From contig CM102286.1 of assembly GCA_046563655.1 (NCBI GenBank), positions 12,090,001 to 12,154,000 of the forward strand: DNA of 64,000 nt, given 5' to 3'. Made by a program: the position numbers and the translations under genes. Positions 52 through 61,000 of the stretch are shown one piece after another. The notes under the pieces were generated by a model, which was given only the letters and a program-made list of their open reading frames with translations, had not been told where the DNA came from and did no database searches. Position 1 is the stretch's first letter. Every line of letters starts with the position of its first letter. This DNA is from Yuukianura sp. NJ FZ-2021 (Eukaryota).

Positions 52-1260
52 ATGGAAGAAACAACAGAAGACATTGAGGCCAAGTTGCGACATGGACTAC
101 ATCAATGGCCATCAATGTCTAATGCAGAATTGGACGCTTTTGGTAAATGACATTGGGGAGAATGCATATTTCAAATAACGCTTTCATTTTTTTTTGTTTT
201 AAAAGACTCAGAAATCCAACGGATTTTATCGGTGGACTTGCACGAAGATTCACAGAGCCTCCATGATGCTGAAGCGAAACTTTCCGCTAATCAGATGAAG
301 ATCATTCAATTATTCAAAGGCGAAGGTCAAGACCAAGAGGGAGGCAGGTTAGGCAAGTTGCGTTGTTGGCTGCGCAGTATGAAACTCAAATTTACGAGAA
401 ACTGGCCACAATCCAATGGAGTCATGTATGTCTCGACGCTGTTTGGGTTCAATGTCGTTTGGAACAAAGCTGTGTGCGAAGAAGAGTACTTTCGAATTGT
501 AAGAGCTTTTTCTATAACTACATCTCAAGATAATAACAAATTCGATTTTTCTACAATTGGCTAATGTTAAAATATGTATCAGCTTAACGTAATGGCAATG
601 GAGGCAATGCCAGGGAGTGACTTCATTTCCTCCCACTTAACAATGGTTCGCGTTGCTAGTGCTTTGCGGTGGTGGTGCCCTATAGTTCCAGATGTAGTCG
701 ACGAAGCGTTCGGGTTTCTCTCATGGAATATTGAAGCGTCTCCCCACGAACGCTTCTCAGCTAAACAACGCGGAGCAGTTCTGAACGTCGAGAAAGGAGT
801 GTTGATTAGTGTTTGCTCCACGGGCGTCGACTTTCAAGTGACAACATTTGACCATGGATCGTTTTCTCTCGCCAAAGAAACTGCACAAGGAGGTGAAAGT
901 TTTATTGAAACGATTTTTTTGTGGGGTTTCTCAAATGAGTTTTAAATTTTAGTCCTTGAGAAATTCAAGTCAGCGATTGCAAAACTGGGGAAGATCCATG
1001 AAAAGACGCTGCAGGGTTTCCGCATCCGTGTCAAGCTTTGCAAAGAAGCGCAACAATGTATCTCTTTGAAGGACATTCCAGAAGTAACGATGCAATCAGC
1101 TCTGCCTCATAAGGCAAACTACAGCGAAGTCGTCGAATTTTCGAGAGTTTTAGCCGCTGCTGATGAATCACAAATTGAAAAGGAAAAGCGATTACTGCTC
1201 AAGAAACTTTCAAAATTTATGACGAAAGAAGAACAGCAGCAAGAAAATCAGTCCATGTAA
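52..1260 (+). CDS. Uncharacterised protein, about 333 aa, 4 exons (52-142, 206-498, 583-892, 953-1260); may be 5'-incomplete
   Basis: GT-AG introns of 63, 84 and 60 bp with compatible phases join ORF-track pieces 232..564, 574..945 and 1066..1260 into one frame (MEETTEDIEAKL...QQQENQSM*). AATAAA near 1323. An AG at 47-48 could be an upstream acceptor. No family recognised. Confidence 0.75.
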
Positions 1261-1868: not shown

Positions 1869-3307
1869 ATGGAATCCGAAACATTTCAAAAGGTCGAACT
1901 TGCAGAAAGCAACAACGAGCCTCTTCATAAAAAAGTCAAAACAGCAGGCGCAGGCGGCGATACTGAAACGGCGAATGGAGAGGACTCTAACGGTGTAATC
2001 GTAAAGACGTACCAGCTGAATCATTTTGGACACATTGAATTTAAGCAGATTTTGAGTAACAGCGTCGACTTCAAACGAGTTACGGTTGAGGGAACATATA
2101 AAGGCGACACCGCTGTGATCATACTGGACAAAAAGCCTTTCACGGAGGAAGGCCTGAAGACTACTTTTTTTTCTGAAAAGTCTGGACTTACACTTCTATT
2201 TCAAAACGATATTTACGGCAGCTACAACTGTTTGCCTGAAGAACAAGCAGCAGGTGAATGAATTAATGCGCTCTTACTTTCGTACCAGTAAGAAGCGACC
2301 ACTCAATTAATAGCCGATCTTTTTATTACAGAAATCAAGGCAACTGTTATTGCGCCAGCTACTCAAAAGCATATCGACAAATACAAGTTTTCTCAGTTGT
2401 ACTTTGTTGAGGAAACTCCGGAGTTGTACGAAAAAGTGACTCTTCCGTACTTGGAATCCACTCGTTTCAGCGTCGATGTATGTTTTTCGGTTTCATTGTA
2501 GGAATAGTCATGCAGAATCCGTGTTTGGATTGATAACATGTCGCTCTTTTTTTCTAGTGGGTTTATAACGTTCTTGAACATAAGAAAGAGGCAGAAAGGA
2601 TCGTTTTTGAGGACCCTGATCTCAAAACAGGATTTATTCTTGCCCCAGACTTGAAGTGGGACGGGAAGTCAATTGAAAATTTATATCTAACAGCAATCGT
2701 TCACCGAAGAGATATCAAGTCCATCCGGGAGCTTACAGCTGAGCATTTGCCACTTTTGGAAAACGTTTTGGAGCAGGGAACGGTGAGTGGACACGGGTGG
2801 GTAGATAGTAGTCAATCCCAATATTCCCAATAAGCTTTATTTCGTTTTGGAGTTCGTATTCGGACTTCGAAATTCACAATTATCATTTATCACGTGAGGT
2901 CACCAACTTCTTATGAATGTTTTCGTTTGTTTTAGAAAGCGATTGTTGAAAAGTACGGTGTAAAGCGGAGCCTACTTCGTGTTTACTTTCACTACCAGCC
3001 ATCCTATTATCATCTTCACGTACATTTCAACAGTGTCCAAAACCAAGTTGGAGGTAACGCTCAATCAGTTTACACCAAAAGTAAATGATGTTACAGACAC
3101 GAGTCATGAAAATGCCACAGGCCTATTTTATAATGTAATATTTGTTTGCATGCAGGAACATTTACCGAGAAAGCCCACCTTTTGAGGACGGTGATAAATA
3201 ATCTCAAGCGCGATAGTTTGTATTACGCCGAAGCGACGATCCCGTTCGTCGTAAAAGAGTGCGAACCTCTCTACAAAAAACTTGTGGAGTATGGCTACCA
3301 ATTCTGA
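1869..3307 (+). CDS. DCPS: m7GpppX diphosphatase (scavenger mRNA decapping enzyme), 5 coding exons (1869-2253, 2332-2477, 2558-2782, 2936-3053, 3156-3307)
   Basis: The spliced protein has [61 protein letters not shown] and the HIT motif [13 protein letters not shown]. All introns are GT-AG and in phase. Stop TGA at 3305-3307. Confidence 0.95.
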
Positions 3308-5462
3308 ATCACCTACTTCCACTACATTCATATCATCACCTACGTCCTCCCCTACTGATGTAGAAGAAGCCGCCACTGGTGTGGTAGAACCCACCACCGC
3401 TAATACAGAAAAAACAACTGCAGAAGAACCCAGCACCACTGTAGATGAACCGACCAATATAGAAGAACTCAGCAATTCAGAAGAACCCAGCAATTCCGCA
3501 GAACACATCACTATGGAAGGGCCCACCACCATTACCATTTACCAAGAATCCAACGAAGACCCTACCACCACAGAAAAACCCACCACTACAGAACAATCTA
3601 CCAGCACGCAAAAACCCCCCATTACAGAAGAATCCACCACTGTAGAAGAACCCACCAATACAGAAGTACTCAGCACCACAGAAGACTGCCCAATTATAAA
3701 AGACCCCCCTACATCCGAAGCACCCACCACCATAGTAGAACCCCCTGTTACGGAGGAACCCTCCATTGCAGAAGTACCCACCAACACAGAACAACCGACA
3801 ACTTCAGAAGAATCTACAACCACAGAACAACCCACCACTTCACAAGAAGCTACCAATAAAGAAGAACTCATCACTGAAGAACCCATCACCAAAGAACCCG
3901 CCACTGAACAACGTATCACTGAAGAACCCATCGCTGAAGAGCCCATCACTGAAGAACCCATCACTGAAGAACCTATTACTGAAGAACCTATTACTGAAGA
4001 ACCTATCACTGAAGAACCCATTGCTGAAGAACCCATCACTGAAGAATCCATCGCTGAAGAACCCATCACTGAAGAACCCGCCTCTTCAGCCGAAGCCACG
4101 GCTACTGATACAGAAGAACCCACCACTTCGGAGGAACCCAGCACTACAAAAGTAGCCGCCATTACTGACAACCAAGAAACCGCCACCACCAACGATTTTA
4201 ATTCAATCCTGGTTTTTGCCGAGTATCTTCCGAGACTTAGCATTTTGAACCTTTTTGTTACTTCCAACGAAACTGCCGCAGACTCCAGCGTCACCGTACT
4301 GAATGACACTCAAACATTAGCACTAACTAAACCTTCACTCTTCTGTCACTTCAATGATATTGCCTTTGATTGCAGTTGTCCCATTACAGCATGTCATTTC
4401 AATCAGTTTCCAAACACCCGTCACTTCCGCTTGGTGACTGAACCCCTCAATTGTACTGCAGGATCTTCTTCTATGGAACTCTTAAACCTTCGCTTGGAAT
4501 CACAAGATCAAACCTTCATGCGGTTGTTTCACTCTTCCCAGAATCCATTATCTCTTGAAGAGAATCAAGATTATTCACTTCACTGTCAAAACTGCAACTT
4601 CATTTTACGAGAAGGCGCCATTTTCAAAAAAATTCGTCAAGTTCCTTCCGATGGATGGGAAGAGAGAGCCAACGAGTATTGGTTCTGCCACCCACCGGAA
4701 CCCAATGATTTGGATTCACACTGCGTCTCCAAAGAGATGCAGTCGGAATCCAAACCTGACACTGGCGATTCAGTTACTGAGTCCTTGGAACAATTAACCG
4801 TTGACGAACCACCAGCTTCCGATATTTTTCAATTGATGTCAAATCCAGAAAACTCTATTTGTCTATTCGGGCCCACCTATTGGATACTCAACTCAACCGG
4901 CTTACTAATTAATCGGGATGACGACATTGCAAATTGTGGGAACTGCCAGCAAGAATTGGGCTTCTTCTTGTCCAAGCATTCCGTTCAAATATGGAATTTC
5001 GGGGTTTATTGGACTGGAGGTAGAGAGGACATTTCTACTTCATTGTCAAGCCCAACTTTGGACTTTCGCAGAATTGTATTTTCTTTACTTCGGGAAGCCA
5101 GTACTTCAATAACTCAAATTCTGCTGAAATCAGTTGATCGTGACAAGGTCATCTTCCTCTGGATTTGGGACACAGACGCTGATGTTCTCGTGGGAATAGA
5201 AGATGAAGAGGAAATTGGAGACGGACCTGGAATTTTGCACATGGAGAAGCGAAAAGGTGTCAAGCTCTTGTACAAAATTCTTCCTGGAGAGCTGGATTCC
5301 GGAAATATGGACGTGGATATGGAAATCACTGTCCCGAGAAACGTTGCTGATGCGGCTCTGGATACCATTTTGAGAACTCCCGTCACCATGAACTGCAAGG
5401 TTCCTTCTACGGGCAAAGTTCAGACTGAGATTCAACTCGAATGCGGATATCTCTTGTATTAA
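3291..5462 (+). CDS. UBE3D: Intronless 723-aa ORF: about 300-aa acidic Thr/Glu/Pro-rich repeat region followed by a UBE3D/Ipa1-like (HECT_2 family) domain
   Basis: First ATG is at 3291. The C-terminal half shows VFAEYLPRL, a CxxC (LHCQNC), the signature RQVPSDGWEERANEYWFCH (cf. LPSENW.E...W.CH), a second CxxC (CGNCQQELG) and a KLLY motif. ATTAAA near 5503. Confidence 0.8.
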   Translation: MATNSESPTSTTFISSPTSSPTDVEEAATGVVEPTTANTEKTTAEEPSTTVDEPTNIEELSNSEEPSNSAEHITMEGPTTITIYQESNEDPTTTEKPTTTEQSTSTQKPPITEESTTVEEPTNTEVLSTTEDCPIIKDPPTSEAPTTIVEPPVTEEPSIAEVPTNTEQPTTSEESTTTEQPTTSQEATNKEELITEEPITKEPATEQRITEEPIAEEPITEEPITEEPITEEPITEEPITEEPIAEEPITEESIAEEPITEEPASSAEATATDTEEPTTSEEPSTTKVAAITDNQETATTNDFNSILVFAEYLPRLSILNLFVTSNETAADSSVTVLNDTQTLALTKPSLFCHFNDIAFDCSCPITACHFNQFPNTRHFRLVTEPLNCTAGSSSMELLNLRLESQDQTFMRLFHSSQNPLSLEENQDYSLHCQNCNFILREGAIFKKIRQVPSDGWEERANEYWFCHPPEPNDLDSHCVSKEMQSESKPDTGDSVTESLEQLTVDEPPASDIFQLMSNPENSICLFGPTYWILNSTGLLINRDDDIANCGNCQQELGFFLSKHSVQIWNFGVYWTGGREDISTSLSSPTLDFRRIVFSLLREASTSITQILLKSVDRDKVIFLWIWDTDADVLVGIEDEEEIGDGPGILHMEKRKGVKLLYKILPGELDSGNMDVDMEITVPRNVADAALDTILRTPVTMNCKVPSTGKVQTEIQLECGYLLY
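3869..4080 (+). repeat. 15-bp coding minisatellite (ATCACTGAAGAACCC)n encoding (ITEEP)n, about 14 units, inside a wider degenerate EEP(T/S) array (about 3360-4190)
   Basis: Directly visible tandem units with synonymous and ACT/GCT variants. Confidence 0.95.
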
Positions 5463-5730: not shown

Positions 5731-8700
5731 ATGATTGGACGGACTCTGCCTTTCTGCTTCTCCTCCACTCTACGTTTCCGTCAATTCTTTTGGTCAACAT
5801 TGCAGCACTCGACAATGGCACCAGTCCCAAGTCATTATGATTATTTGGTTATCGGAGCTGGATCGGGTAAGCACTTTATTCATTGATTTAAAAACGTATA
5901 CCTCATCTACTCCGAATGAAATAATCTTTAAGGACGGGTAAGAGGCAGCGTTTGTTTACGATTTGGTGTCAGCCATTGTCATTAGCAACAAAGCAAAATC
6001 ACTGCTCAAACTTGCAAAAGTCGGCACTGTTTCCAATGATTGACAAACCGAAGTTTTTCGCAGGATAGGAATTCAAACAACCTGGGACTCAACAACAACC
6101 TTGTGCCCATGGAAACGGTTGATTTCGGTGCCGATATTTGCAAATTATTGAATAATGTCAGAATTACATCTCTTTTGTCTTATAACTTTTTTATTATAAG
6201 ACCTAAAAATGCGTGTAAGGTGTCTAAAAATCCGGAAGACCATGGCGCATAATAGTTAGGGGCCAATTTCCAAATTTTTTGTGTCATACAATACTTATAC
6301 AAAATTGAACCTTTGTATCGGATTTTTAGTATCATTCAGCAGCAAGAAGTCAAATTCTGACGCCTAATAATTATTCTACGAATATCAAGGAATTTTTAGA
6401 GCCATTGCACAAATTTCTAGGTGATTCCTGTGAAGACTTATTAAGCCTGAAAGTTAATTAATTTGAGGCAAAACGAGACCCACCGTTGCCATGTCTTATT
6501 CCTTCTTAAGTCCAAACAGAAACAGATTAACCGTAATGTAACTACGCCAGTTTTTTGTAGGCGGGATTGCCAGTGCACGACGTGCGGCAGAATTTGGTGT
6601 CAAGGTAGCTGTTATTGAATCTGGACGATTAGGCGGAACTTGTGTAAGTATATTGATTCAATATTATTGAATATGGACCACCCTTGTAGTTGTATCCTTG
6701 TATCGGATATCGGATCACTAACATTTTCGTGTTTTTTTTTTCCTTTTGATTTCAGGTAAACGTGGGATGTGTACCGAAAAAAGTAATGTTTTATGCATCG
6801 AATTTGCGAGAACATGTTCACGATTACAAGGGCTATGGATTTGACGTACAACTTAATGGATTTGATTGGGGGTGAGACTGAGAGTGCATTCGATTCGTAA
6901 AATGGAAACGTTTTTTAGTAATGGTGGAGAATAATGTATTTTTAATTCTTCTAGTAAACTAAAAACCGCCAGAGATGCGTACATTACTCGTCTGAACGGG
7001 ATTTACGGAACGAATTTGAGTAACTCGAAAGTGGAGTTGTTCCGAGGAGCTGCAAAATTCGTCGGTAAGTCAGCTTGTGTTAGCATGGTAATGATACTTG
7101 AAGCGGTTCCATGTCATAGCGGCCGGATTAAAAGCTGTCAATCCAATAACTGCCGATGGCAAAACCAGTCGAAGTTAAGGAAAAAGGTTGTGAAAAAACT
7201 CAAATTGGTTGTTAATTTAATTAATCAAATTCTAACTGAAAATCCTAAACTAGGCTACATTAATTAACCTAACCTACTTATTTAGCTTAAGTAATTCTAA
7301 CACTCGCCGCGTTGGTATCGGCCCCTTTTGGTTCGGCTACTATACCTGCCAGACCTGAAGCAATTAACTATACATTATATATGTACTTGTATTTGTATTA
7401 TGATTTTTATAGGTGATCATGAAGTTGAAGTGAACGATACGCGTATTACTGCTAAACACATCCTGATTGCCACGGGCGGTTATCCACGTATCCCCGAAGA
7501 TATTCCTGGGGCAAACTTCGGGATTTCCAGTGACGGATTCTTTGAATTGGAGAAACTACCAGAGTAAGCCGTATACTTTATTCTCATGTCATTGTTTTTT
7601 AAAAAAAACTTTGCATCAACTCGTAGAACTGTCTGCGTCGTTGGAGCTGGATATATTGCGGTAGAGGTAAATTAAAACCCCATTCTAGTCTTTCTCTTAT
7701 TTAGTTTTTGTAAATGGGAAGGCAAATGCTTTTCACCTTAGTACTTAAGCTACCGTACCGTACTGTGCTACAGTACGGAAACAATGATATTTCTACAGTA
7801 TAGTTTGTTTTATTATAGTTGGCAGGTATCCTTCAGTCTCTCGGCTCGAAAGTGACAATGGTTATCAGAGGGAAGCAAGTGTTGAGGACATTTGATACGC
7901 TTATCAGCGACAAAGTTACGGAGAACTTGGAACAAAGCGGTATAACAATCAGAAAGGAATCACTGGTGAGGTTTCTTTAGGAATCATCTTAAAATCTACT
8001 TGAAGAAGGTGAATTAGTATTGCAAAATATAACCTCTTTTTTAGGTCACTGAAGTCAAGAAAGGTGATGGCGAAAAATTGACAATTTCAACCAACCATGG
8101 TCTACTCGAGGCGCCAGTGGATTGCTTGATCTGGGCAATCGGGAGGGATCCACACGTTGATATTGGACTAGAAAAAACAGGAATCAAGCTAGATGCAGAA
8201 CGTCACATCATCGTTGATGAGTAAGCATATTTAAAATAACACTGAGACGTTATATAAATTGTCAGATAGCAAAATAATTGTTTTCTGGTGAAGATTCCAG
8301 AACACCTCTGTGCCTAACGTGCATGCCATTGGAGATGTTTGTGGGAAGTGGCAATTGACCCCTGTAGCAATTGCCGCCGGCCGAAGACTGGCTCATCGTC
8401 TATTCAATGGTGAAACGAACCTGAAGCTCTCCTATGACCAAATTCCAACAGTGATATTTTCTCATCCACCAACTGGGACTGTGGGAATGAGTGAAGCGGA
8501 GGCACGTAGCAAATACGACAAGGTCAAAGTCTATTCCAGTGCTTTCGTCCCAATGTACTTTGCAATGTCGGAACGGAAAGTCAAAACGTACATGAAGGTC
8601 ATTTGTCAAGGAGATGACGAGAATGTCGTTGGCCTCCACATGATTGGAATGGATTGCGACGAAATTCTTCAAGGATTTGGAGTGGCAATTAAGATGGGAG

Positions 8701-8774
8701 CAACTAAGAAACAGTTTGATGAATGCGTAGCTATTCATCCCACTTCTGCCGAGGAACTGGTTACGCTACGTTAG
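5731..8774 (+). CDS. GSR: Glutathione reductase, 9 exons (5731 or 5815-5866, 6561-6643, 6756-6871, 6955-7064, 7413-7563, 7627-7666, 7819-7965, 8045-8220, 8294-8774)
   Basis: [23 protein letters not shown] motif, redox centre [32 protein letters not shown] motif, C-terminus [15 protein letters not shown] with no thioredoxin-reductase tail. All introns are GT-AG and in phase. AATAAA near 8842. Confidence 0.95.
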
Positions 8775-28680: not shown

Positions 28681-30800
28681 AAAGGGCGTGGTTAGTACTT
28701 AAACTTTTTCCAAAAAACTTATTTTTTTTGACAATTTTCCAAAAAAAAAATGTTACACTTGTAGTTTTACCTCGGAAAGGGCACCCACGAGAGTTAAAAA
28801 ATTCAAAATTCCACTTCAAGGGCGTGATCAGCAGTACAGCTTTTTTGAAAAATTTCCAATTTTTTTTCTGATTTACAACCGCGGAACCAATGTTGCACGC
28901 GTAAAACAATCTCGGAAGCGGTACCCTCAGAATAGTACCCCCTTGGGGTACCTTAGTAAAAAATTTCAAAATTTTTGCTTAAAGGGCGTGGTCAGCAGTT
29001 ATGTTTTTTTGAAAAATTTCCAATTTTTTTTTCTGATTTACAACCGCGGAACCAATGTTGCACGCGTAAAACAACCTCGGAAGCGGTACCCTCGGAAGGG
29101 TACCTCCTTGGGGTACCTTAGTAAAAAATTTCAAAATTTTTGCTTAAAGGGCGTGGTCAGCAGTTATGTTTTTTTGAAAAATTTCCAATTTTTTTTTCTG
29201 ATTTACAACCGCGGAACCAATGTTGCACGCGTAAAACAACCTCGGAAGCGGTACCCTCGGAAGGGTACCTCCTTGGGGTACCTTAGTGAAAAATTTCAAA
29301 ATTTTTGCTTACAGGGCGTGGTCAGCAGTTATGTTTTTTTGAAAAATTTCCAATTTTTTTTCTGATTTACAACCGCGGAACCAATGTTACACGCGTAAAA
29401 CAACCTCGGAAGCGGTACCCTCAGAATAGTACCCCCTTGGGGTACCTTAGTAAAAAATTTCAAAATTTTTGCTTAAAGGGCGTGGTCAGCAGTTATGTTT
29501 TTTTGAAAAATTTCCAATTTTTTTTCTGATTTACAACCGCGGAACCAATGTTGCACGCGTAAAACAATCTCGGAAGCGGTACCCTCAGAATAGTACCCCC
29601 TTGGGGTACCTTAGTAAAAAATTTCAAAATATTTGCTTAAAGGGCGTGGTCAGCAGTTATGTTTTTTGAAAAATTTCCAATTTTTTTTCTGATTTACAAC
29701 CGCGGAACCAATGTTGCACGCGTAAAACAACCTCGGAAGCGGTACCCTCGGAAGGGTACCTCCTTGGGGTACCTTAGTAAAAAATTTCAAAATTTTTGCT
29801 TAAAGGGCGTGGTCAGCAGTTATGTTTTTTGAAAAATTTCCAATTTTTTTCTGATTTACAACCGCGGAACCAATGTTGCACGCGTAAAACAACCTCGGAA
29901 GCGGTACCCTCGGAAGGGTACCTCCTTGGGGTACCTTAGTGAAAAATTTCAAAATTTTTGCTTACAGGGCGTGGTCAGCAGTTATGTTTTTTGAAAAATT
30001 TCCAATTTTTTTCTGATTTACAACCGCGGAACCAATGTTACACGCGTAAAACAACCTCGGAAGCGGTACCCTCAGAATAGTACCCCCTTGGGGTACCTTA
30101 GTAAAAAATTTCAAAATTTTTGCTTAAAGGGCGTGGTCAGCAGTTATGTTTTTTGAAAAATTTCCAATTTTTTTTCTGATTTACAACCGCGGAACCAATG
30201 TTGCACGCGTAAAACAATCTCGGAAGCGGTACCCTCAGAATAGTACCCCCTTGGGGTACCTTAGTAAAAAATTTCAAAATTTTTGCTTAAAGGGCGTGGT
30301 CAGCAGTTATGTTTTTTTGAAAAATTTCCAATTTTTTTCTGATTTACAACCGCGGAACCAATGTTGCACGCGTAAAACAACCTCGGAAGCGGTACCCTCA
30401 GAATGGTACCCCCTTTGGGGACCTTAGTAAAAAATTTCAAAATTTTGGGTTGAAGGGCGTGGTCAGAAGTTTTTTTTTTTTTTGAAAAATTACAAGTTTT
30501 TTTTTCACTTTACAACCTCGGAAAAACTGTTACACGTGTAAAACTACCTCGGAAGCGGTACCCCAACGACGGTACCCCCTGTGGATACCTAAGTTGAAAA
30601 TTTCACCAAATCCACTTGAAGGGCATTGTCAGCACTTAGTTTTTTTTGAGAAAACTCAAGTTTTTTAAGTTTTCAACTTCGGAGAAAATGTTACACGTCT
30701 AATTCTATTTCGGAATGGGTACCCACGAGAGGAGAACCCCTTAGGGTGTATAAATTAAAATTTTCAAAAAATCCAGTTCAAGGGCGTGTTCATCACGTAG
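28681..30800 (+). repeat. About 164-bp satellite array, left arm, about 14 units with degenerate edge units
   Basis: AGGGCGTGGTCAGCAG recurs at about 28981, 29146, 29311, 29476, 29639, 29802, 29964, 30126 and 30289, with degenerate copies at 28681, 28818, 30452, 30618 and 30779. Confidence 0.97.
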
Positions 30801-55000: not shown

Positions 55001-58000
55001 AGTTCCTTCTGCTGCACTTTTTTTCAGTTTATTTTGGCGTTCTTTAAAAAACATTAAGGTGATAGTGCAGCACTGTGAAAAAATTATTGGTTTTAGAAAA
55101 CTCCAGATTTTTCAAGATATTGAAAGTTTAACGACGTCGTTTTGAAGAAGTAGTGTTAAAAACCGTAATGTGAACTGCTAATATTAGTTTACATCACCGT
55201 ATGCTGTTGAGTGCCTTCGTTAAGCCTCTTTCACACCGGATACGCCGCAACAACTGCCGACGGCAGTTGTGACGGCGTAACAAACTGCCGTAGACAGTTG
55301 TTGAAGGGTTTCACACTGCACCACCGGTTCTTTTTACGCCGTAAATTTTTTCTACGGAAAGTTTTACGCCGGTCTCGGTGTGATACAGCTTCATTTGTTC
55401 ACAATTCTTGAAAGGAAACTTTCAGTGTCATATGGGACAACCAATGAAGTAGATGAATTGAAAACAACCGAATCATTACTATTATTGATGTGCAATTGTT
55501 CCATTACCATTCTTTGGGAGGTGTAGCCGACGTATTTCGGAATAGGGTGATGTATTAAGACAAATTAATAGTTAATTAGCTAATTAACTATTAGTTAACA
55601 CTTAAACAATGTTAATCCTTTTGTTTTTCTACTTTCGTACTGGTGATTTGATTATGTAGAAAGAAGTGGGGAAGGATGATCAGCTGAGATGAGATGAGGA
55701 ACTTTCCGTCCGGAGCACTATGGCACGGGAAGGTCAAAAAAATTTAAAAAATCTGAAAATACTCTATTTTTTACGAGGAATTCGAATTTTCAACTCCCGT
55801 TTCACAAATCTCAACCATTTGACCTCTGGAGGTCATAAAAGGTCAAATTTTGAAGTTGCTCAGAATAGGTCGAGTAAGGTATCGTTGGAAAGGTCATTTG
55901 TCACTGATTTCAAATTTGTATGCATATTGACTTTTATTTTTAACCATGTGACCCCTAGAGGTCATAAAAGGTTAAAGGAAAATTCAAATAACGAATGACG
56001 GAATTCACAAAATTCAGTTGGTATCCGAATACGATTCTAATTTTATGCAGTGTATTTAGATTATAAACTTAACTGGAATTCAGTGAAGTGTACAGATATA
56101 TTACAGATCCATCACGAATGGATTACAAGCTAATCATCATCTAACGGAAGTTCTTCTTCTTCCTGTAGCTCGATTTCCACCAAAAGTTTATCAATATCGC
56201 TCACGCCACTGAAATCTGTGTCATTGTCAGAGTCTCCTCCATCCTCTTCATCCTTTTCGTCATCATCTTGTGCTGTACTTGCGGATGGTTCGTCAGGCTG
56301 CGCCAGCAAAGCCAGTACTTCTTCTGGAATTGGATACCTGTTATAATCAGTGTTTGCATAAGCTAGATTTAGGTACGTTGAATGAAGTGACGAGTTTGTA
56401 GTCTAGTGCACATACCTTACTCTTTTGTTCATTCGCATCTGAAGATCGATGCTTGATAATATTGGATCAGAGGTATCCATGGTTCTAAGAAACATGTCTC
56501 CCATGTTATCCCTTCTTGTAGTTTTCCTAGCATGATCCAATCTGAATTTTCGATAATGTTTGTTCCTCGCTTCTTGAGCATCTTCTGCTAGCATTCCGAC
56601 TGGCAATATACTATGGGTAAGGATTTGGGAACCATGGATAAGAATTTTATGGAGCGTAGCAGGCATAGGATACCAGCTGTACAGTGCCACATAAGCTTCT
56701 GCTGTTTGTTTGCAAAGTTCACCAAATAGAACTGGATCCAAAGGCAGCTGGCATGAAAGTGCAATCAGAATTGTCCTGAAGTTCTTGACCAGTGAAACAT
56801 CTAGACCAAGAATTGTTGCAAATTTTTCATAGTTTCGAAATGCGATCCTTGCAGTATTGCCATCATTCGTGGTTCCTGCTCCTTGTTTCACGTAATCTAC
56901 ACGTATACCCAGCGCATCTCGTAGTTCGTGCTGTAATTGTTCCTTTCTGATGGCTAAACTTGTGTTTCTCTTCCCTCCCGGAACTCTCCAAACTGGGGGA
57001 TTGAATGCTAGCCGATAGGAAATATGCAAGCAGCACTCAAGTAGCCGAATCCAAGCGTGCAATGGGCTTATACCATGCTGAAGATTGGCGGGGTTCGGTG
57101 TGAATACTTCCATGCTCATGTTTCTCAAGTCGTTGAACTGAGATGGTTTTGCGGAACAAATGGGGCAAGATTGAGATGAAGAATTGGTTTTGATATTTAG
57201 AATCTTCCCGTCAATCATGGTCATCAGCAGAATGAAGTTGACGTTCAATTCTTGGCCTGTAGTTTCAAGCATCAATTTACACGGCTGTAATGTCCGGATC
57301 TCGGCTTCCATCTTTTCAATTTCGTGTAGAACGAGTTCTTTGGATTCTGGTTGAAATTGAAGCCGGACTGGTCTGCAAAATCGTGGTGATTGAGGCGTTA
57401 AATTATTCCAGAGGATCACTACATCTCCCTCTTCTGTGATTCGCTGTAACCGCAATGGAGAAATTGTGGTTGCAAATAAACTTGCATCGTTGACAGCAGT
57501 AGCACTTCTGTTTTTATAAATGGAATGATCAGAGCTTCCATCACAACCCCAAGACACAATAAGTTGAAGATCAGCAGCCTCACTGGTATGCATTGCGAAA
57601 AATGTGGAAATAACGTTGTCCTGAAGTTTAACAATGCGACCGACAGTATGATCAAGCAGATTTTGAAGCAATACTTCCGCTTTTGCATCATCAATGAAAA
57701 GTTGATCCATGGATGGTCGACAAGCTAGCTTCTCTTGCGCAACTCTGTTGTATCCGGGAAAGATCAGCACATCATGCTCAGCAACACCTTTGGAAATCGC
57801 GATGTATTGACTCTTGCTGAGGTTATTGGCCAGAATTAAAGACAAAGCTTCGACACAAGTGTATTTCCGAGGTTCCTTCTTTTTTTCAGCAAACAGGGTC
57901 CGTCTTGCTACTGTCAAGGAGTGTGGACTCCTCTGTGCCACTTGCAGAATTTTGGCCAAATCCTGTCTGCCAGCAGTTCGGGCAGCATAAGTTGCGGCAC

Positions 58001-61000
58001 ATACGAGTCGTCTCGGAGTACCAGCAAACTGTCCCGCAATATGGATTGCGTCTAGTCTCCTGGAACTATCACCCAGCTCATCATACGGCAATTTTGGTCT
58101 GCCTCTGCCGCGACCCCGGCCAATTGATGTTGGTTGTGCAAGATCCAGCTTTGCAGTTGCTGAATGCCCAGTCTCTTTTTGTTCTTCCATTCCACGGCCT
58201 AGGCCAACTGAAGATAACGGTTGAGGCAAGCTTTGTTCGTCAACAGCAGAAACCACAGAGCTTGATGCTGAGCTAGATGTGTCGGATAATTCCATGTCCG
58301 GAATCTAAGAAGCATAAATTGTGTATCACAAACATTGGTGATGACGTCAGTTTAAAAAACAGTATAAAAAATTCACTAAATTACCTCAAATTCACTTTCT
58401 AACCAGCTTTGGTTTTTCAAGCTGTATGTACGGCGATTGCGGCCTGAACGATTCCATCTGTCCTTGTCCCTAGAACGCAGAGCACTAACAGATTTTCGCA
58501 GTTTTTCAATGGCAGCTTCTGCGAGTCTGCGACGATTGATTCCCAGCTTCTCAATAATATATTTTACTCCAGCCTCGACATCTTCTGTGGTGGAATCCGT
58601 CTTAAAATTTTGGATAACGTCGCCCTTCGTAATCACTATTTTGTCAGACATCTGAAATTACAAAATAACTAATGTCATTTTTCTCTCGAAATTACTTTCT
58701 CCAGGATTCTCCAAAAACAGAATACATATGAATGATTAAGCTAGAGTAAACATTAAAATATTACCTTGTTATGAAACAGATTTGATAAAAAGTTGGATTT
58801 GAGCCTTTAATTGTGAATAGTAATACAAAACCAACTATGAAATGAATTTTGTGTTGAAATTGAAATTTTAAAATGTGTTGTGTTTGAGGTGCTCCTGTCT
58901 CCCTCCTGTAAGGAAGCCGCAGCTGACCGCAAGGAATAATAAACTACTATGTATAGGCTTTAAGCCTATATAGTCCCCTCCCAGTTTGGACCCGGGACTT
59001 GACGGTGCGGGCAGTTGGAAGTTGTGCCCATGCTGGTATGGGCAAACTTGGTTTGAATACATGGCGCTATGAGGCCAAAGCGTTGACCGAAAAATTTGAA
59101 ATTTTGCACAAAAATCCCTTAATGATAAAGGTATTTAAAAATGCAAAAAACTCAGAATCCATACGGCGGTATTTTTTGAATTTTTTTGACCTTCCCGTGC
59201 CATAGTGCGGAGTTGGTCCAAAAGTTGAAACTTTTCAACTTTTGGGGCTCCCATCTCCTCCTGTAGGAAGAGTTGACGGCGTAAAATGTGACGGCGGCAG
59301 CCGTGAGTCAATGTGAACACCACACCCGTCTTCCGCCGTCAACTTTCTCTTCCGTCGGCCAACTCACCGCCGGTGAGTTGGTTTGGTGTGAATGGATACG
59401 CCGTCACAACTGCCGTCGGCAGTTGTTGCGGCGTATCCGGTGTGAAAGAGGCTTTAGAAAATGACTCCAAATCCCTCTTCCTTATGTCCATATTATTACT
59501 GCTTTTCAGTGTTATGAAAGGTTTGGATTCATTTGATGGGAACTTTGGGAGAGCGATAGGTTGTTAATGTTAGGTTCACCAAGTGGGAAAACTGTTTATT
59601 TTTCTAATCTTAAGACAAGCGTTGTTCCTTCAAAGGCGCTTAGCACTGCTAGTATAGCATCGGAGGTTGTAGGTTACAAAAAACCAGGGAAGTTAAAGTT
59701 AGGTTACGTCTCCAGATACTGTAATTTCCCTCTTGAAGACCTCTTAACCGTCGTACATGCCCTATTTCATTTCTTCGAAAAGTTTATGAGCCCTCTACTA
59801 TCTCTAAGGCCAGGCCAAGGACTTTCTCCAGAATTAAATCCTTAATTTTATCATTTCACTTTCTTCTCAACTTTCCCTAACGACGTTTCGAGCACCACAA
59901 AGTGCAAATTTCGGTTTATTCAAACTGAGTTTGGATTCTAAAAAAAAACTTCCTGTGCTTGCGCGTGCGCATTCACTTTTTATCCTTATTCTTTTAACTC
60001 ACATTTTATTTTAGTGTATGGAGAAAGTCAAAGATTGAGGAAAAAAAAACTTTTAATCCGGCAACAACCTCAGATTGAGAGGTGTTGGATAGTTGCCAAA
60101 TTTTCTTTTTGATATTTCTGAAAGATCTAGACGCTTTTTTGCACTTTATATAGAAAAAATGTGTCTGAAATTTTGAGACTCAGCCAGGGTCAAGGAAGCG
60201 AGTAGACGATCAATGTCATCTTCAATGACAGGCAAAATGAGTATATCTCGTGCCAAAATTGTGATGTTCCTTCCCTCAACTGCATTTTTTCGGACTTTTT
60301 TTTTTTTTTAGAATTTTTTTTCACACATTTTATGGTCCAGTTTGAAACTCCAACAGATAGCGGAACTTGATTTACAAACGGGCAGCCGAGCGTTTCAAAT
60401 TCCTGCCAATATTTCGTTTTTTAAGAAGCGTAACCACAAGAAACTTGCAACTTTCGAAATTTGTATGTGTCTATGTTCGTGTGTAATGGAGCATGTTCGG
60501 GCTTGGCATGTTTCTAAACTCTAAATTCTGAATTTCTAAATTCTAAAACACATAAAACACCAAAGAACTTCTTTCGTGTTGAGATGTGCTTTAATTCTAA
60601 AAAGATTTTCAGAAATTACAAGTCTAAGGCTATTCGTTTTCGGTTTTTTTTTCAGAAAACTTTGAATACGGTTTTCAGCAACTTCAAGGGCGGGGTTATT
60701 TCGAACTTTCAAAAAAGTTTTTGGTTGATCCAAAATAGTACTCAACTTTTTTCAGTGCTTCCCGTTTCCCATGTTTCCCTCTTTTCATTTTTTTTTGAAA
60801 ACTCGCGCTTCCAGTTCCAAGTTACTTCTTTCTCTCAGTCTTGGCAAAAAGTAATTTGGCTGATTGAATGGATTTTTGGGGGAAGTTTTTGGAAGCAGGA
60901 AGATATAAAAAGAGACGTACGGTTTTTCGGCACAAAAAAACCGTAAATCACTTCAACTACCAAGCCTTCCTACTTTTTTCCTGCCTTAGACTTGTTCAGA

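Follow-up and report, generated by a model that had tools for sequence, protein, structure and literature searches.

Transib transposons form the lineage from which the RAG1 core is accepted to have descended. The HzTransib transposase is, as far as is known, the only Transib transposase that has been characterised biochemically and structurally, and it has neither a GRP motif nor a region like the nonamer-binding domain (NBD) of RAG1 at its N-terminus. Here I describe an element of this kind in a stretch of 64,000 nucleotides from Yuukianura sp. NJ FZ-2021 (GenBank assembly GCA_046563655.1, contig CM102286.1, positions 12,090,001 to 12,154,000 of the forward strand), which is called the window below and in whose numbering all positions are given. 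The element occupies positions 55716-59207 (3,492 bp), carries one gene on the minus strand, and is very probably an autonomous, structurally intact HzTransib-like Transib, inserted in a high-copy repeat that resembles a miniature inverted-repeat transposable element (MITE).

HzTransib (PDB 6pqn, 6pqr, 6pqx and 6pqy) is the best solved relative of the protein encoded by the element, with 35-39% identity over the whole catalytic body. Both have a DDE triad and a C2/H2 zinc site and are the product of a single-gene element, and the target-site duplication (TSD) of 5 bp that a passage of the preprint by Martin (2023) gives for HzTransib is found here likewise. The solved HzTransib chain has 497 amino acids, its residue 10 being aligned to residue 150 of exon 2 of the gene, and it is devoid of about 239 N-terminal residues that are present here, which comprise the exon-1 domain, a linker, and the GRP motif together with the helices that resemble the NBD. 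At the other terminus, the protein of the element adds an acidic tail of about 60 residues. The original prediction, made from the letters of the window, had called HzTransib considerably shorter; this is true of the solved chain, but the norm of the family is different, as the 120 relatives listed have a median length of 684 amino acids.

With the RAG1 core (3gnb, 5zdz, 6oet and 4wwx) the protein shares the order of a GRP-headed NBD, a dimerisation and DNA-binding domain (DDBD), an RNase H fold, the ZnC2/ZnH2 parts and a C-terminal domain (CTD), as well as a GRPR/K-type motif, an acidic C-terminal tail, and signals composed of a heptamer and an A-rich nonamer. The identity to RAG1 is 13-17%, the ends are symmetric rather than 12/23, and the gene resides in a mobile element with a TSD instead of being a host recombinase. 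The RAG1 system also has a RAG2 partner and an N-terminal RING/zinc region, neither of which turned up in the frames of the element or in the Pfam scan: outside the transposase frame there is no stop-free frame of more than 101 amino acids that could be a RAG2-like partner gene, the short frames not having been run against kelch or PHD models, and Pfam found nothing significant in exon 1 or in residues 1-150 of exon 2 that would represent a RAG1-type N-terminal zinc/RING region. ProtoRAG, with its transposase BbRAG1L (6b40), shares the RAG1-like core fold (VIA Z 25.3), terminal inverted repeats (TIRs) that start with CAC, and the 5-bp TSD. However, RAGL transposons have a convergent RAG1L-RAG2L gene pair, whereas no second gene was seen in the 3.5-kb element, and BbRAG1L is described in a passage of Martin (2023) as being without the GRP motif that the element has. 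BbRAG1L uses a CCGHC clamp, whereas the tail of the protein described here holds neither Cys nor His.

The assignment of the element starts from the stop-free frame of 633 codons on the minus strand (56403-58304) that contains exon 2. In a search of the PDB sequences with this frame, residues 150-631 were aligned with residues 10-472 of HzTransib chain 6pqn_A (E 7.2e-94), while RAG1 chains were found with E values from 6e-7 to 8e-4 and BbRAG1L with 1.6e-5. The bit scores were 318.8 for HzTransib, at most 31.7 for RAG1 and 27 for RAG1L, which places the protein nearer to Transib than to RAG1 or RAG1L. RAG1 PF12940 is the sole Pfam match (E 1.3e-9). The identity of the element as a Transib is effectively settled, and judged from the scores alone its grouping is HzTransib-like. 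Many Transib relatives bear the precomputed Pfam label PF26100, which a scan of two of them (P0037 and P0061) against Pfam did not return; PF26100 is perhaps a model of recent date that describes a region specific to Transib.

The fold agrees with this assignment. An AlphaFold2 model of the exon-2 product, computed with 24 relatives in the alignment, has a mean predicted local distance difference test score (pLDDT) of 82.1 and matches HzTransib chain 6pqx_A with a Foldseek E value of 7e-37 and a TMt of 0.87; superposition with VIA gives a Z score of 39.7 and a root-mean-square deviation (rmsd) of 2.5 Å over 462 aligned residues. Against the chains of RAG1 and BbRAGL the Z scores of the same model are 22-28.

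The claim of complete DDE and zinc motifs stands, as the columns concerned are shared by 114 to 120 of the 120 relatives. In exon-2 numbering, and on the minus strand throughout, the first catalytic Asp lies in a CDG motif at residue 255, which is residue 344 of the 787 of the full protein (57540-57542; D in 119/120 relatives), and the second in an IDGK motif at residue 365 (57210-57212; D in 114/120). The catalytic Glu of an EARNK motif at residue 578 (56571-56573; E in 118/120) is aligned to the E of ESGNK in RAG1 (alignments u48141 and u97700). The zinc ligands, within 56634-57167, are C380 (57165-57167) and C383 (57156-57158), each conserved in 119/120 relatives, H552 (56649-56651), conserved in all 120, and H557 (56634-56636), conserved in 117. 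All seven catalytic and zinc residues are kept, and I consider the chances that the protein is catalytically competent to be evenly balanced. The family to which it belongs is large, with 5,204 matching cluster representatives at E ≤ 0.001 and 758 at E ≤ 1e-30, and none of the full-length matches exceeds about 49% identity; the element therefore represents a distinct lineage of a common family.

The exon-2 frame by itself does not make up the gene. A model with three exons gives a protein of 787 amino acids without a stop, starting at the first in-frame ATG (58651), and reproduces the stop-free three-exon coding sequence of the original prediction. Exon 1 (58385-58651, minus strand) encodes 89 amino acids of a Transib-specific N-terminal domain and matches residues 1-84 of a relative (P0004, E 3e-11). 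It is followed by a predicted intron of 80 nt (58305-58384; GTAATT..TCTTAG, phase 0, 28% G+C), whose removal yields the junction WLESEFE|IP, corresponding to an uninterrupted WLESEFEIP in P0004. Exon 2 (56416-58304) encodes, in this order, a Ser-rich disordered linker, an RG repeat that includes GRPK, the helical domain resembling the NBD, and a catalytic body similar to the RAG1 core, with DDBD, RNase H fold, zinc site and CTD. The second predicted intron has 78 nt (56338-56415; GTATGT..TAACAG, phase 2, 37% G+C), and unless it is removed the exon-2 frame runs into a stop five codons further on, the frame being open to 56403. Exon 3 (56130-56337) contains a conserved motif and the acidic C-terminal tail without Cys or His, ends with the stop codon TAG at 56130-56132, and matches the last 57 residues of P0004 (673-729, the C-terminus; E 3e-9). 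The splicing of this coding sequence is supported by homology, because exons 1 and 3 are colinear with the N- and C-termini of P0004, although this support comes from alignment and the splice sites are predictions. A further putative intron of 113 nt in the 5' untranslated region (58652-58764, minus strand; GTAATATT..AATTTCAG, 27% G+C) is predicted from its consensus splice sites as sole support. The G+C content of the introns is 27-37%, compared with 44% in exon 2. A Pfam annotation of exon 1 as CUT was rejected as sub-threshold (E 0.018; 15.5 bits, with a cut-off of 24.4).

The ends of the element, which had been read as resembling recombination signal sequences (RSS), are well defined, and here too the prediction of an intact Transib is confirmed, with TIRs of 37 nt that differ in one position and a TSD of 5 bp, CGGAG. 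The TIR on the 3' side of the gene (55716-55752, plus strand) starts with the heptamer CACTATG (55716-55722), and the TIR on the 5' side (59171-59207, minus strand) has its heptamer at 59201-59207. The sole mismatch between the arms is at TIR position 30; the inverted-repeat search gave arms of 38 nt, of which the extra base is a flank letter that is complementary by chance. The window contains exactly two occurrences of the end's first 20 nt, on opposite strands and at both termini, with 0.00 occurrences expected from 100 shuffles, and it holds no second copy of the element. Immediately outside the TIRs stand the two copies of CGGAG (55711-55715 and 59208-59212), a perfect 5-bp duplication as expected of the Transib superfamily. 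Both copies are read from the sequence, and a single CGGAG is present in contigs of paralogous or unoccupied sites (joints 55710->59208 and 55696->59208).

At the gene-distal end, two direct repeats of 35 nt (55813-55847 and 55942-55976, plus strand) that are 89% alike lie in a subterminal position, inward of the TIR. Each consists of a palindrome TGACC(N4-5)GGTCA followed by AAAAGGTCAAA or AAAAGGTTAAA, which resemble the AAGGTCAAA that is present in both TIRs. With at most one mismatch, AAGGTCAAA is not enriched across the whole window (46 matches, with 40.7 expected), and only the clustering at the left end stands out: five of the 46 matches are inside the element, and four of these five within 55730-55976. 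From their sequence, the repeats may be candidate accessory binding sites of the transposase. AGGTCA is also the half-site of nuclear receptors.

The Transib is nested in a MITE-like repeat of about 740 bp, the flanks of which are 55222-55715 and 59208-59454. This host repeat has perfect inverted ends of 58 nt (55222-55279 and 59397-59454) and is bordered on both outer sides by TTA, which suggests a 3-bp TSD of its own. Its interior holds further GC-rich palindromes, for instance at 59394-59438. The insertion was further examined in contigs of three sequencing runs (X1-X3), which all derive from one sample that is possibly the source of the window and which cannot give a copy number. The word depth of the host-repeat contigs runs into the thousands, marking the repeat as a very high-copy family. 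Copies of it read straight through the point of insertion and have CGGAG once (joint 55696->59208, depth 2,351), reading ...GTCCGTC-CGGAG..., and one contig shows the exact unoccupied site (joint 55710->59208, five letters shared, depth 44). The element itself is found in an unbranched contig of 3,383 nt (55564-58946) that starts in the flank and passes into the element without any difference, at a depth of 92.5, near the 80-92 of the two variants of the low-copy flank at 59631.

These contigs leave little room for the explanation that the element is an assembly artefact or contaminant DNA, which I regard as extremely improbable. One run (X3) gave no contig over 56408-58823, which would fit that explanation but is no proof of absence; however, the other two runs hold the element with word shares of 1.00 and 0.86, and one contig spans the left junction and extends into the high-copy repeat of the host. 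Moreover, the TSD and the empty sites in paralogous copies are as expected of a genuine insertion, and deletion derivatives with the same ends occur in all three runs. These internally deleted derivatives are of two kinds, with joints 55897->59039 and 55968->58876, the latter with 352 other, unrelated letters in between; they share the ends of the element, from which they differ by about 10% (20 letters in about 178, and 39 in 334). They fit older non-autonomous relatives of the Transib, and together the contigs suggest one full-length copy beside diverged, deleted derivatives and unoccupied sites.

The near-identical TIRs, the perfect TSD, the open reading frame and the unoccupied sites suggest a recent insertion, and judging by its sequence the copy is possibly active, a new member of a known family. 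Alternatively, it may merely look intact, being silent, inactivated outside the known motifs, or a single-copy gene on its way to domestication, and no longer move. I take this to be quite conceivable, although somewhat short of probable. It would agree with the presence of one full-length variant, in an unbranched contig of 3,383 nt with 0 differences, with the internal deletions and the roughly 10% divergence of the other family members, and with the closest protein being less than 50% identical, which gives no sign of a young, expanding family. However, the TIRs differ in one of 37 positions, the TSD is perfect, the 787 codons of the three exons are free of stops, and each of the seven catalytic and zinc residues is in place; furthermore, the retention of both TIRs and the location in a copy of a MITE would be unexpected for a domesticated gene. 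Some observations do speak against a recently mobile, autonomous Transib in this place. The sample's contigs contain a single full-length variant and hence no sign of a recent amplification of the autonomous copy, they come from the possible source sample and are thus not independent, and those with unoccupied sites may stem from paralogues of the host repeat and not from the allelic site. I nevertheless retain the structurally intact, autonomous element as the preferred reading.

The spacing of the A-rich blocks within the ends is a separate question. In the families described in parts of Kapitonov and Jurka (2005, PMC1131882), the 38-bp end consensus consists of CACAATG, a 23-bp spacer and AAAAAAATC, and most families are RSS23-like at both ends while a few are 12/23. 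The present element resembles these families in its 5-bp TSD, in a terminus of about 38 bp and in its heptamer, CACTATG, which agrees with the consensus CACAATG in 6/7 positions. As had been predicted, both ends read CACTATG, 12 nt and then CAAAAAAAT (55735-55743 on the left, 59180-59188 on the right). This block is followed by TT or TC and by AAAAAAT, and the repeat stops at position 37. As the inverted repeat continues through this A-rich stretch, there is a second A-tract 22-23 bp from the heptamer, at TIR positions 31-39, which starts within the left TIR and lies partly within the right one: AAAAAATCT on the left (55746-55754) and, on the strand reading inward, AAAAAATAC on the right (59169-59177). 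A comparison by hand with the consensus nonamer AAAAAAATC as given in that paper, at a spacer of 22 bp, gives 8/9 identical positions for TAAAAAATC and 7/9 for CAAAAAATA. Each end thus has a CAC start, a heptamer and A-tracts at positions 20-28 and 31-37, as expected of an RSS-like TIR, and the two tracts, at about 12 and at 22-23 bp from the heptamer, are about one helical turn apart. Unlike the families as described in those parts of Kapitonov and Jurka (2005, PMC1131882), the element has an extra, perfectly conserved A-tract at 12 bp on both ends. The two ends do not form an asymmetric 12/23 pair of signals, being the same up to position 37 except for position 30; according to a passage of Tao (2022), symmetric and asymmetric TIRs both occur among Subgroup II Transibs.

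I searched 80 metagenomic loci that encode relatives for ends of the form CAC...GTG, 1.8-6 kb apart and with at least 22 of the 30 terminal nt complementary. Ends were found in 12 of the 80 loci, with identical 5-bp flanks in five. Five of the 12 loci represent one family, of which L053 was kept and L017, L061, L078 and L080 were dropped. In the resulting 18 ends of nine families, the element's own two ends included, A is found at positions 33, 34, 35 and 36 in 14, 14, 17 and 14 of the ends, whereas positions 20-25 have A in 8-13 of 18. The peak at positions 33-36 agrees with the published heptamer-23-nonamer consensus.

The original prediction had taken the ends for a symmetric 12/12-like pair. 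They are symmetric, but the second A-tract at 22-23 bp had been left out of account, and it is positions 33-36 that are more conserved as A in the 18 ends. The 12/12 label takes the less conserved of the two tracts, and on these sequences that reading is doubtful. In its full form it would have the functional signal consist of the heptamer, a 12-bp spacer and CAAAAAAAT on both ends, with the GRP hook of the transposase reading the tract at 12 bp, which seems unlikely to me. It is true that CAAAAAAAT is identical on both ends and has the longer run of A, that A-rich blocks are also present at 12-bp spacing in three of the eight other families (AGAAAAACG in L072, ACAAAAGCT in the L053 family and AAAAAGCTG in L005), and that the families reported in parts of Kapitonov and Jurka (2005, PMC1131882) include some with an RSS12-like end. 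However, the inverted repeat passes, with one mismatch, through the second A-tract to position 37 and thereby has the length of the 38-bp consensus in print, in which a 23-bp spacer separates heptamer and nonamer; the A peak of 14-17 of 18 at positions 33-36 exceeds the 8-13 of 18 at positions 20-25; and three families (L006, L029 and L037) have an ACAAAA block solely at the 23-bp spacing, and two of these, L006 and L037, encode the GRP motif as well. A more far-reaching idea, for which I see only a slim chance, is that the GRP-headed domain could use either tract, which would let a symmetric element assemble a 12/23-like synapse with one end bound at 12 and the other at 23. If this were true, the loss of one tract per end could have led to asymmetric 12/23 Transibs and ultimately to RSS-type signals, and ends with two tracts would be candidates for an intermediate stage from which the 12/23 rule arose. 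Comparable double blocks are present in the three families named above, L072, the L053 family and L005.

The protein region that may contact these tracts is headed by a 10-residue motif region (58092-58121, minus strand), the last four residues of which are an AT-hook-like GRPK (58092-58103); in two alignments (A1 and A2) the conservation of its G and R columns is 90% or more. In the AlphaFold2 model, exon-2 residues 1-67 are disordered, and GRPK opens an NBD-like domain (residues 68-145; 57870-58103, minus strand) with four predicted helices at 79-138 (pLDDT 76-84). The RAG1-like GRP hook put forward in the original prediction is there, since GRPK heads a helical domain at the position of the RAG1 NBD, but it is no peculiarity of this copy: of 120 relatives examined, 101 extend over the motif position, and 87 of these have GRP, with R or K following in 21; the same holds for 12 of the 19 metagenomic relatives of alignment A2, which have GRP. 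The consensus after GRP (F/Y, then R-S/T-K-R-R) is common to the relatives too. Three extra GR dipeptides precede GRPK in the element and in none of the 24 relatives of alignment A1, and this RG repeat may have arisen by local expansion, which would place additional arginines beside the AT-hook-like motif.

The correspondence with RAG1 is one of position. RAG1 chains in which the NBD is resolved are aligned from the GRP region onward (model residues 64..624 with 386..1007 of 5zdz_C, 68..626 with 391..1008 of 6oet_A, and 70..627 with 392..1008 of 4wwx_B), so that residues 64-70 of the model equal 386-392 of mouse RAG1, whereas chains without the NBD begin their alignment at model residues 145-147, which are RAG1 459-461 (residue 145 being about 459). 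The NBD-bearing chains thereby add some 50-60 aligned residues. This structural register puts the GRP of the element at about RAG1 residues 389-393, which is approximately where a passage of a review places the GGRPR motif of RAG1. Because the chains with and without a resolved NBD start at matching boundaries, the NBD-like domain occupies exactly the position of the RAG1 NBD, and on the predicted model the positional equivalence of the two can be called shown.

When the domain is taken by itself, its match to the NBD is weak. Modelled alone, it gives a pLDDT of 84.5 and can be superposed on the RAG1 NBD (3gnb_A) in GRP-to-GRP register (VIA Z 4.4, rmsd 4.1, 59/68 residues), yet this match ranks 13th among unrelated helical proteins and is within noise. 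In a Foldseek search with the isolated domain the top three matches are RAG1 chains, but with E values of 5.3-6.8, and none reaches E ≤ 0.001. With a profile of the region from the 20 sequences of alignment A2, the PDB sequences yielded matches at chance level (MetJ, E 0.14) and not a single RAG1 chain with E ≤ 10. A homodimer prediction of the NBD-like piece scored 0.01 and is not used either way. Neither the motif nor the ends are new as such. Parts of Kapitonov and Jurka (2005, PMC1131882) report that the transposases of Transib have conserved the two motifs at the termini of the nonamer-binding region of RAG1, a passage of the Martin (2023) preprint identifies the NBD-GRPR/K in Transib, and the equivalence of the Transib GRP motif to the RAG1 NBD is in print in part of Tao (2022); the GRP hook and the RSS-like ends are family-wide traits that have already been published.

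By analogy with HzTransib and RAG1, transposition of the element would begin with a transposase dimer that pairs the two ends. Nicks at the border between heptamer and flank would then lead to hairpins on the flanking DNA and to the release of blunt transposon ends, which would be integrated with a stagger of 5 bp. The GRP motif and the helices that follow it may use the minor groove to read an A-rich block in each TIR; the block conserved in the family is separated from the heptamer by about 23 bp, and the element offers a further one at 12 bp. As the acidic tail holds no Cys or His, a CCGHC clamp is absent, and this makes an NBD-dependent, RAG1-like hold on the distal part of the TIR more likely.

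Apart from the element, the window holds some other features. A stop-free frame of 735 amino acids at 3255-5462 has a first half made up of a Thr/Glu/Pro-rich, mucin-like repeat (EEPITEEPIT...) and a second half that is globular and contains Cys. At 8292-8774 lies an exon for the C-terminal part of a glutathione reductase, with at most 74% identity to any protein found and best matches spread over copepod, annelid, molluscs and ticks; by this exon, the host is an invertebrate animal that has no near relative among the proteins searched. A third stop-free frame, of 220 amino acids at 28703-29365, consists of about three tandem units of about 65 amino acids (...FLIYNRGTNVARVKQPRKRYPRKGTSLGYLSKKFQNFCLKGVVSSYVFLKNFQFFF...), corresponding to a tandem DNA repeat of about 195 bp.

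For the annotation of the genome, the locus represents a recent-looking, nested insertion of a DNA transposon in a MITE-like repeat. For the family, the expectation of a useful pre-RAG model and tool holds in so far as the copy is a reasonable candidate, but it is one among very many, as the 758 cluster representatives at E ≤ 1e-30 illustrate. A passage of the preprint by Martin (2023) calls for biochemistry on additional Transib transposases. Being intact and having well-defined ends, this copy could serve for such work. Since it is full-length and carries the NBD-like region, it would be a suitable object of study, as many of its relatives equally would.

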